A stretch of 28,290 nucleotides of DNA from a virus. The position numbers were made by a program. This document shows, piece after piece, positions 1 to 3,000 of the stretch. The stretch lies in the UHGV virus genome UHGV-0284664; one strand, given 5' to 3'. Numbering within the stretch: position 1 is the stretch's first letter; every line of letters begins with the position of its first letter.

Positions 1-3000
1 CGGCATAACCTGAATCTGAGGCAGCACCTGGCACGGCTGGGACGGAAGTCGCTGTCGTTCTCAAAATCGGTGGAGCTGCATGACAAAGTCATCGGGCATT
101 ATCTGAACATAAAACACTATCAATAAGTTGGAGTCATTACCATGAGATTAGACCAAAATGTGGTCTTCCCTTATTAAGGATAATGGATTTATCCCCAAAT
201 GATAGATATATATTAGACATTCTCATTGATTACCCGGGTATAAGAACGTTAATTCCAGAACCAAAATATTCAGCATTCCCGGTTAGTGTAAGTGATTCTG
301 TTGGCATTGAAACAAATAGCTTTCCCGTACCATCAGAAGAATTACCCATTGTTGCTGTATTTGACACTGGGGTAAGCCCCATCGCGGCAACAATTACTCC
401 TTGGGTAGTGAGTAGGGAAACATACGTAATTCCTCCTGATACGAGTTATGAACATGGGACTATGGTGTCTTCATTGATATCAGGCGCTCATTTTTTAAAT
501 GACAATCATCCATGGATTCCTGATACAAAATCTAAAATCCATGATGTTTGTGCTTTAGATGAAAATGGATCTTATATATCAGATTTAATTCTGAGGCTAG
601 CAGATGCTGTAAATAAAAGACCAGATATAAAAGTCTGGAATTTATCTTTGGGAGGCGGACCATGTAATGAGCAGATGTTTAGTGATTTTGCGATGGAGTT
701 AGATCGGCTCAGCGATAAATTTGGTATTTTGTTTGTAGTTGCTGCAGGTAATTATGTAGATGAACCTATACGTACATGGCCAAATCCTGATCCGCTTGGA
801 GGTGCTGATTTAATTTCCTCTCCTGGAGAGTCAGTCCGAGCACTAACAGTTGGTTCAGTTTCTCATATGGAAGCTAATGATGCTTTAAGTGAAATTGGAA
901 CACCGACACCATATACTCGTCGTGGCCCTGGGCCTGTATTTACTCCAAAGCCAGATATAATCCATGCTGGCGGTGGGGTTCATAGACCTTGGAATGTAGG
1001 AGCAAGCAGTTTAAAGGTCGTAGGGCCAGATAATAGGCTTTGCTCTAATTTTGGTACTAGTTTTGCTGCTCCAATTGTGGCAAGTTTAGCTGCGCATACA
1101 TGGCAGAGAATAGCCACTAATTCAGACTTTAATGTTTCACCATCATTGATTAAAGCATTATTAATTCATTCCGCTCAATTATCTTCTCCTGATTACTCGC
1201 CAAGTGAAAGACGCTATTTGGGAGCGGGAATTCCTAATGAGGTTATTGAGACCTTATATGATAGTGATGATAGGTTTACTCTGATTTTCCAAACATTCTT
1301 GGTTCCTGGGGTGAGGTGGAGAAAGGAAAACTATCCCATACCATCGGCACTTATTCAAAATGGAAAATTTAAAGGTGAGATTGTAATTACTGCTGCATAT
1401 GCACCACCACTGAACCCTAATGCCGGCAGTGAATATGTTCGCGCGAACGTAGAGCTAAGTTTTGGCTTAATTGAGAATAATACTATAAAAGGAAAAGTAC
1501 CTATGGAAGGAGAAAACGGTCAATCTGGATATGAGAGAGCTCAAATTGAGCATGGTGGAAAGTGGTCACCAGTAAAAATTCATCGCAAGGCATTTAATAA
1601 AGGAATTACTTCGGGTAACTGGGCTCTTCAAGCTAAAACAACGTTGAGAGCGAATGAACCGGCCTTAATGGAGCCTTTACCTGTAACTATTGTAGTAACT
1701 TTAAAATCATTAGATGGAAACACACAAGTTTATGCTGATGGCGTAAGAGCTTTAAATGCTAATAACTGGGCTCACTATCCATTGCCTGCTCGTGTGCCAG
1801 TTTCCGTATAACAACTATATAAATCAAACCCGCTGTAGCGGGTTTGATTTATTTGTGGGTGTGTTTTATAAAAATACCGCCCATACACAACAAAATACAA
1901 AAAGTATTACAGATAAAAAAGGAGCGTAATGTGCAGATTTGTTGTTTTCCATATTTACTCACCTTAATATGATTAATCCCGATAAGATTGTTATTTCAGC
2001 GGTTTTCAAATGAAATATTATGCTAATCTGGCAGATTTGCATAACATTAAAATTTAATTTATCTAACCGCTTTTAATAATAAGCGTTGTATTTTTATCCC
2101 AGCAATCTGTTGTTTGGTTTTTATTCCATTAAGGTGGGGCTTTACACTGGAGCCAGTTTATTTATACTTCATACGTCAGCCTGAACAACTGGCACCTGCT
2201 GCGCCAGCAGAGAAAACAGATGGCGCACGATACCAAATTTTACAATTCGGATAACTCTGCCGCCCCTGCCAGCAGGCACGGGCGGCGTTCTCATGCATTC
2301 AAATCTGACTGGTATCAGCACGACCCCTGCACCGAAGAACAGGCTGAATGGCTCATTCAGTGTTACCGCGGGCGCGGATGCGAGGTTAAAAAAGCCCTTA
2401 GCCTCGACTACCGTCACTGGATAATCTCCGTCAGGCTCCCTTACTCAGAACGGCCAGCGCGTCCGTCCCGCACATTCCAGCAACGGATCTGGAGGTAATG
2501 TGCGGGTATTACTTCGATCTGTTCTGGTACCGGAACTCGGTCTGGTTATCGTTAAGCCAGGCCGTGAATCAATGTCAGCATTCCATAACGGCAGAATACT
2601 GGTGGAGCCGGAACCAAAAAGCATGCGTAATCTGCCGTCCGGGGTCGTTCCTGCCGCTCGCCAGCCGCTGGTGGAAGACAAAACATTGCTGCCGTTTTTC
2701 AGTAACGCACGGGTGATTCGTGCTGCTGGTGGTGCTGGTGCATTGTCTGACTGGCTGTTGCGCCATATTAAATCCTGCCAGTGGCCACACGGCGATTATC
2801 ATCACAGCGAAACCGTCATTCACCGTTATGGTACCGGCGCAATGGTGTTGTGCTGGCACTGCGACAACCAGCTGCGTGACCAGACATCCGAATCACTCGG
2901 GCAACTTGCTCATCAAAACCTGTCAGCATGGATGATTGACGTCATCGGTCACGCAATAAGCGGTACGCAGGAGCGTGAATTATCTCTGGCTGAATTATCC

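Follow-up and report, generated by a model that had tools for sequence, protein, structure and literature searches.

Probable IS1 truncation of iteS leaves an S8 protease remnant of the IetAS anti-phage system at the left edge of virus genome UHGV-0284664

The 28,290-bp virus genome UHGV-0284664 (the whole of which is here called the window, with open reading frame coordinates given on its + strand) opens with an AT-rich segment whose main open reading frame (ORF; 183–1811) had been described, in an initial sequence-only reading, as a complete, leaderless S8 subtilase and possible half of a two-gene defence module. We found that this ORF encodes a member of the IetS family, the proteases of the IetA/IetS (IetAS) anti-phage pair, whose components appear as IteA/IteS (NCBIfam NF042959/NF042956) in the spelling used by NCBI, and that the locus is, with a probability that we put at about 0.9, the remnant of an iteS gene of this known system truncated by the insertion sequence IS1. 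Positions 142–2203 represent the right half of an IetAS moron cassette of lambdoid/Rac-like prophages, which in its intact state comprises iteA and an overlapping iteS encoding a 754-aa cytoplasmic S8 protease with two N-terminal units, a catalytic domain and a beta-jelly-roll. IS1, at iteS nt 595/596, parts the remnant from the promoter, iteA and the first 198 iteS codons, either by simple insertion, with iteA and the 5′ part of iteS on its far side, or through an IS1-caused deletion. The ORF is what stays readable from the first ATG in frame (Met213) and most likely gives no functional protein. Neither the system (IetAS), nor its setting in a prophage moron, nor the type of event that broke it, an IS1 insertion, is new.

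Three independent profiles matched the ORF, each over only its C-terminal ~72%: the PADLOC IetS profile (E 1.8e-240, 798 bits, profile positions 206–748 of 749), the NCBIfam equivalog 'S8 family anti-phage peptidase IteS' (E 1.9e-253, positions 205–747 of 747) and a PHROGs profile (positions 222–775 of 779). The PADLOC and NCBIfam matches bear out the protein family guessed at in the sequence-only reading. The NF042956 score of 843.1 bits falls short of the curated cut-off (900) because of the truncation, the homology itself being certain; the full-length relative in the annotated locus L001 reaches 1041.1 bits over positions 1–747. The sole Pfam family found in the ORF, Peptidase_S8 (E 2.6e-26), together with an alignment of 33 homologues in which D61, H91, N190 and S293 (D273, H303, N402 and S505 of the full-length protein) are invariant, confirmed the complete Asp/His/Ser subtilase set noticed earlier, and the ORF thus retains the catalytic residues and the oxyanion Asn of IetS/IteS. 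Besides the S8 catalytic domain, it retains one third of the second N-terminal unit, namely the last, and a C-terminal beta domain whose ~190 residues match no Pfam family, in agreement with the earlier remark that no motif was recognisable there. We considered this domain as a candidate novel effector and rejected the idea, since it is a generic beta-jelly-roll common to other subtilases.

An ordinary secreted or housekeeping subtilase with no link to defence would also have Peptidase_S8 as its sole Pfam match, and the best solved-structure matches are indeed secreted subtilases. Nonetheless, we give this explanation practically no credence: the IetS-specific profiles scored 798 and 843 bits compared to 93 for the generic one, identical DNA adjoins iteA in prophages, and inspection by eye, with no predictor, revealed no hydrophobic signal-like stretch either in the ORF or in the full-length N-terminus (MSRRGTQFSNAKVTNPMLRIPFSS...). 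Our search for a solved structure of the IetS family found none, only distant subtilases (E ~1e-5). Among subtilases with a pro-form and a C-terminal beta-jelly-roll, Tk-SP (3afg) and KP-43 (1wmd) are secreted and share 17–21% identity, whereas IetS has an additional N-terminal unit, no signal peptide (by eye) and an ATPase partner.

Comparison with full-length iteS located the truncation precisely. Window position 142 corresponds to iteS nt 596, the second base of codon 199, and from there to the stop codon the DNA is 100% identical to the 3′ 1,670 nt of an annotated Escherichia coli iteS, which suggests, with no mismatches to the intact allele across the remnant, that the event was recent. 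In three annotated loci (L001–L003) the window DNA from 142 sits within a 2,265-nt iteS. In L001, where iteS is annotated at 5406–7670 and the match begins at 6001, the ungapped alignment from window position 142 contains three mismatches in 8,359 bases, none before 3104, and all matches to window 1–2500 in complete E. coli genomes, beyond the IS1 stretch, likewise start at 142. The ORF equals residues 213–754 of the 754-aa IteS and, at 542 aa and with the conserved N-terminal region gone, lacks the ~750-aa architecture of full-length IetS. The 120 best homologues, ranging from Enterobacteriaceae to Pseudomonas, Burkholderia and Comamonas, are 708–771 aa long and cover 94–100% of the full-length query. 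In the 33-homologue alignment, Met213 is not in conserved columns, and the IteS N-terminal region includes invariant residues such as A86, K87, H89, R90, P91, E110, M111 and W148. The 542-aa form is, as judged from sequence comparison, not a natural variant.

In an AlphaFold model of full-length IteS (predicted local distance difference test score, pLDDT, 82.3; predicted template modelling score, pTM, 0.86), two beta-alpha-beta-beta-alpha-beta units, at residues 74–147 and 167–237, precede the catalytic domain. Both the codon-199 breakpoint and Met213 map within the second modelled unit (strands 198–201 and 209–212) and not at a domain boundary. With profiles matching from ~205–222 only, the supposed complete 'leaderless' subtilase is the leftover frame of a 5′-truncated gene; what had looked like a missing leader is in fact the loss of a conserved N-terminal region of 212 residues, and the N-terminus of the ORF is not the native one, whatever its signal-peptide status. 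When we sought iteA and the 5′ part of iteS across the window by blastn and tblastn, only chance matches were obtained.

Immediately 5′ of the remnant is the end of an IS1 element. The translation of window 1–123 matched the last 41 positions of Pfam DDE_Tnp_IS1 (PF03400; positions 91–131 of 131, E 1.3e-19, 71.3 bits vs a cut-off of 24.1), and the stretch 1–141, which we take to be identical to the right end of IS1, matched E. coli genomes at thousands of sites. Both InsB and the terminal repeat of IS1 were found, the visible part being the final 141 nt only. IS1 gives way to iteS precisely where this terminal repeat ends, exactly what real transposition yields. The reading frame seen earlier to enter from the window edge and stop before the ORF is present and ends at TAA 124–126, 56 nt before the ATG. 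This frame is IS1 InsB, so the ATPase or other partner that had been anticipated in the adjoining upstream gene is not there, an outcome that the sequence-only reading itself had named as telling against it. An ATPase gene directly upstream in an operon, as is characteristic of IetAS, was not found in the window, where IS1 occupies that place. The idea that the window holds half of a two-gene system stands in so far as the normal partner is an upstream AAA+ ATPase, iteA, but this partner is not simply off-window, the gene having been cut by IS1 at codon 199.

We also weighed whether the IS1/iteS junction could be an assembly chimera, the true genome having intact iteAS and the contig end having collapsed onto the IS1 repeat. 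The IS1 stub is exactly as long as the k-mer size (141 nt) of a public MEGAHIT contig, L004 (ENA ERZ27281726, k141_7587), so that these contigs end where the multi-copy IS1 repeat begins; furthermore, none of 5,426 complete E. coli genomes has the junction, and its 40-mer is absent from GTDB species representative genomes and JGI metagenome contigs. However, a de Bruijn contig with k = 141 requires real junction-spanning k-mers, a random chimera would not be expected to break exactly where the inverted repeat of IS1 ends, and iteS and IS1 have no common sequence that would cause collapse. Moreover, L004 is a separate contig (27,102 bp vs the 28,290-bp window) with the identical junction: its start coincides with that of the window, and the first 11,811 window bases recur in it without a difference. 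Of the public contigs listed, it alone begins at this point. A chimera is therefore highly improbable.

The contig ends in the IS1 repeat, and iteA may or may not survive beyond it. Assuming a 9-bp target duplication (ATGAGATTA), the left junction between the 5′ part of iteS and the left end of IS1 would read ...GGAGTTAAATATGATGAGATTA followed by GGTGATGCTGCCAAC..., and a search for it with a gap of 0–14 nt found no match in JGI metagenome contigs. The truncated gene resembles IS1 insertion mutations and IS-made pseudogenes of enterobacterial prophages in having the same precise terminal repeat abutting an interrupted coding sequence with an undecayed flank, and differs from them in that only 141 nt of the IS are in view here, the target duplication and the other junction being out of view.

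The intact state is seen in L001–L003, where iteA (1,155 nt, encoding a 384-aa classic-clade AAA+ ATPase) lies directly upstream of iteS and the two genes overlap; L001 iteA scored 526.6 bits against NF042959 (cut-off 510). The iteAS operon is present in 78 of the 5,426 complete E. coli genomes, in every case on the chromosome, with at least 99% identity, uninterrupted over its full length and with iteA, and the isolated phage vB_EcoS-683R6 also carries it intact. An intact cassette lies, for example, at 4873064–4877042 of NZ_CP189662. PMC8562856 and PMC13069673 cite Yamamoto et al. 2009 for the first report of the system, in which it was a toxin-antitoxin pair stabilising plasmid pTiC58, and Gao et al. 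2020 for its later demonstration as anti-phage. These two papers and bioRxiv 10.1101/2022.08.21.504612 describe IetS as a toxic protease and IetA as its ATPase antitoxin, attribute to intact IetAS both plasmid stabilisation and a phage defence that needs protease activity, and present its trigger, targets and mechanism as unknown.

The remnant shares with annotated E. coli IetAS the catalytic set, the C-terminal domain, the terminator hairpin, the AT-richness and the prophage position. Unlike the intact system, it has IS1 in place of the promoter region, of iteA and of iteS codons 1–198 (212 residues up to the ORF start). The same order, with an ATPase antitoxin upstream and a ~750-aa S8 toxin downstream, is found in the Mycoplasma TA132/133 AAA-ATPase/subtilisin-like pair (PMC8562856) and in ietHAS (PMC13069673), both of which are intact and experimentally active, whereas the window copy is broken; ietHAS additionally has an SNF2 helicase (PMC13069673), which the E. 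coli cassette lacks.

Beyond its anatomy, the locus is probably a recently formed pseudogene in an inactivated defence system, with expression and activity both likely to be lost. Several points weigh against this. Neither the catalytic nor the C-terminal domain has lost any part, and the remnant, with no mismatch to the intact allele, shows no further decay, so that, as far as its sequence goes, some activity might persist. An AAGGA (176–180) stands shortly before the ATG, albeit 2 nt away, the contig stops in the IS1 repeat with the sequence past IS1 out of view, and transcription reading out of IS1 may be a source of expression. The intact domains and the open frame with its AAGGA would also suit a truncated ORF that is expressed, for instance by such read-out, as a free-standing, IetA-independent toxin or defence protease devoid of the N-terminal regulatory region, as would the calling of the identical 542-aa residual ORF in 11 public contigs. 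We nevertheless regard this as very unlikely: the remnant is severed from promoter and iteA, our scan for promoter-like sites on the plus strand of window 1–182 found none, the AAGGA is just 2 nt from the ATG, 212 conserved residues are gone with the cut lying within a folded unit, and IetS is reported to be toxic without IetA. There is similarly very little to commend the more specific proposal of a 542-aa product made through IS1 read-through, active and unregulated or differently regulated, whereby IS1 would have turned a two-gene system into a one-gene one.

Other broken copies of iteS came to light on looking up the exact 542-aa product, a procedure that biases the set of contigs found (ascertainment). 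These contigs included some in which iteA is intact and iteS carries one of four further lesions of independent origin: 439delC (L005/L006/L010), a 31-nt deletion of nt 540–570 (L007/L011), the nonsense change C577T (L008/L013) and 607delC (L009). In L012, the first 30 bases (TACCCGAAATCTGATTTATTCAACAAAGCC) are not iteS and are joined to it at nt ~541. Their reverse complement, GGCTTTGTTGAATAAATCAG..., presumably resembles the terminal repeat of the IS903 group, and L012 may harbour a second, different IS insertion in iteS. Frequent pseudogenisation of iteS was rejected as a product of ascertainment bias, the unbiased count of split iteS annotations being two (H90 and H91) of the 60 genomes listed among the 78 complete ones. 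Loss of iteS with iteA kept fits tolerated loss of a toxin gene, though it is rare in complete genomes.

The GC profile (G+C fraction 0.399 for 142–1811, 0.337 for 1812–2203 and 0.542 for the rest of the window) confirmed the AT-rich island against a GC-richer backbone. The intact cassette is ~4.0 kb with a GC of 0.392 (L001 4084–8062) between flanks of 0.50–0.52, and the AT-rich window part 142–2203 corresponds to its right half only. Its right boundary lies at ~2202–2204, where similarity among different prophage backbones stops. The cassette is inserted after the DUF977 gene of the replication module and before late-regulation genes, which are DUF968-RusA-Q in L001, L003 and the window and DUF1367-DUF1364(YbcO)-DUF1133 in the Rac-type L002. 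This position between replication and DUF968-RusA-Q genes, and the AT-richness, support the earlier view of a moron horizontally acquired by a lambdoid prophage. The hairpin noted after the gene was also found, with a 15-bp stem (Table 1). It is terminator-like and, in intact loci, is kept along with the cassette; the hit of the scan was on the minus strand, the plus-strand T-run lying partly within the stem. A search of window 1–2203 for Rfam families yielded none, leaving the AT-rich spacer without a known RNA.

Table 1. Coordinates of features at the left end of the UHGV-0284664 window.
Feature	Position	Strand	Details
IS1 right end	1–141	+	Last 41 InsB codons and stop (1–126); terminal inverted repeat ending ...GTTGGAGTCATTACC at 141
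3′ part of iteS/ietS, 5′-truncated remnant	142–1811	+	nt 596–2265 of the 2265-nt gene
Residual ORF, 542 aa	183–1811	+	Starts at internal Met213 of the 754-aa protein
S8 catalytic residues	Asp 363–365; His 453–455; oxyanion Asn 750–752; Ser 1059–1061	+	Read from the sequence
C-terminal ~190 residues	1239–1808	+	Beta-jelly-roll/sandwich accessory domain
Hairpin, terminator-like	1819–1852		15-bp stem, 4-nt loop; immediately 3′ of the iteS stop
AT-rich non-coding cassette tail	1812–2203	+	GC 0.337
phrog_1212 small protein	2220–2498	+	Backbone, outside cassette
DUF968/HNH protein	2500–3558	+	Backbone, outside cassette
RusA resolvase	3559–3939	+	Backbone, outside cassette
Q-like antiterminator	3936–4757	+	Backbone, outside cassette

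At the boundary between cassette and backbone, a promoter-like TTTACA-16-TATACT occurs at 2141–2168. Gene calls conflict at 2169–2498, with a 92-aa plus-strand protein (2220–2498) in RefSeq vs an 82-aa minus-strand ORF (2169–2417) from metagenome pipelines; phrog_1212 matched only residues 27–92 of the RefSeq protein, so that its true start may be further downstream.

Further to the right, an N6/N4 DNA methyltransferase gene (5332–6381, + strand; Pfam N6_N4_Mtase, PHROGs DNA methyltransferase) directly follows the Q antiterminator and is present in L001 and not at the same place in L003. After the Q and methyltransferase genes, in the region 6431–7433, are three tRNA genes, assigned by ARAGORN as Met(CAT), Arg(TCG) and Arg(TCT), the first of which is annotated as tRNA-Ile in L001 by RefSeq, and then two copies of the small RNA family STnc100 (6756–6946 and 7224–7433; 136 and 161 bits). 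We take this layout to resemble the late region of Stx-type phages, but between the tRNAs and the next gene there is no ORF of toxin size. A 618-aa protein (7656–9512, + strand) with DUF1737, SASA and DUF6645 domains (phrog_143) is presumably like the NanS-p sialate O-acetylesterases encoded downstream of stx in Stx phages. At its right end (28153–28290, + strand), the window has ~140 nt of a gene whose product starts MGKGSSKGHTPREAKDNLKST..., in our estimation similar to the lambda tail-tip protein J at its N-terminus. With IS1 at the left and this J-like gene at the right, both contig ends stop in sequences repeated among prophages or IS copies.

Reading by eye or automated annotation would take the locus for an S8 protease, for a 'solo IetS' or for a protease defence of a new, single-gene kind, when it is really a disrupted IetAS, and in censuses of defence systems it is to be counted as inactivated. 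For the family as a whole, the second N-terminal unit, which in the full-length model sits at the place of a subtilase propeptide, may offer a lead on how IetA might control IetS.
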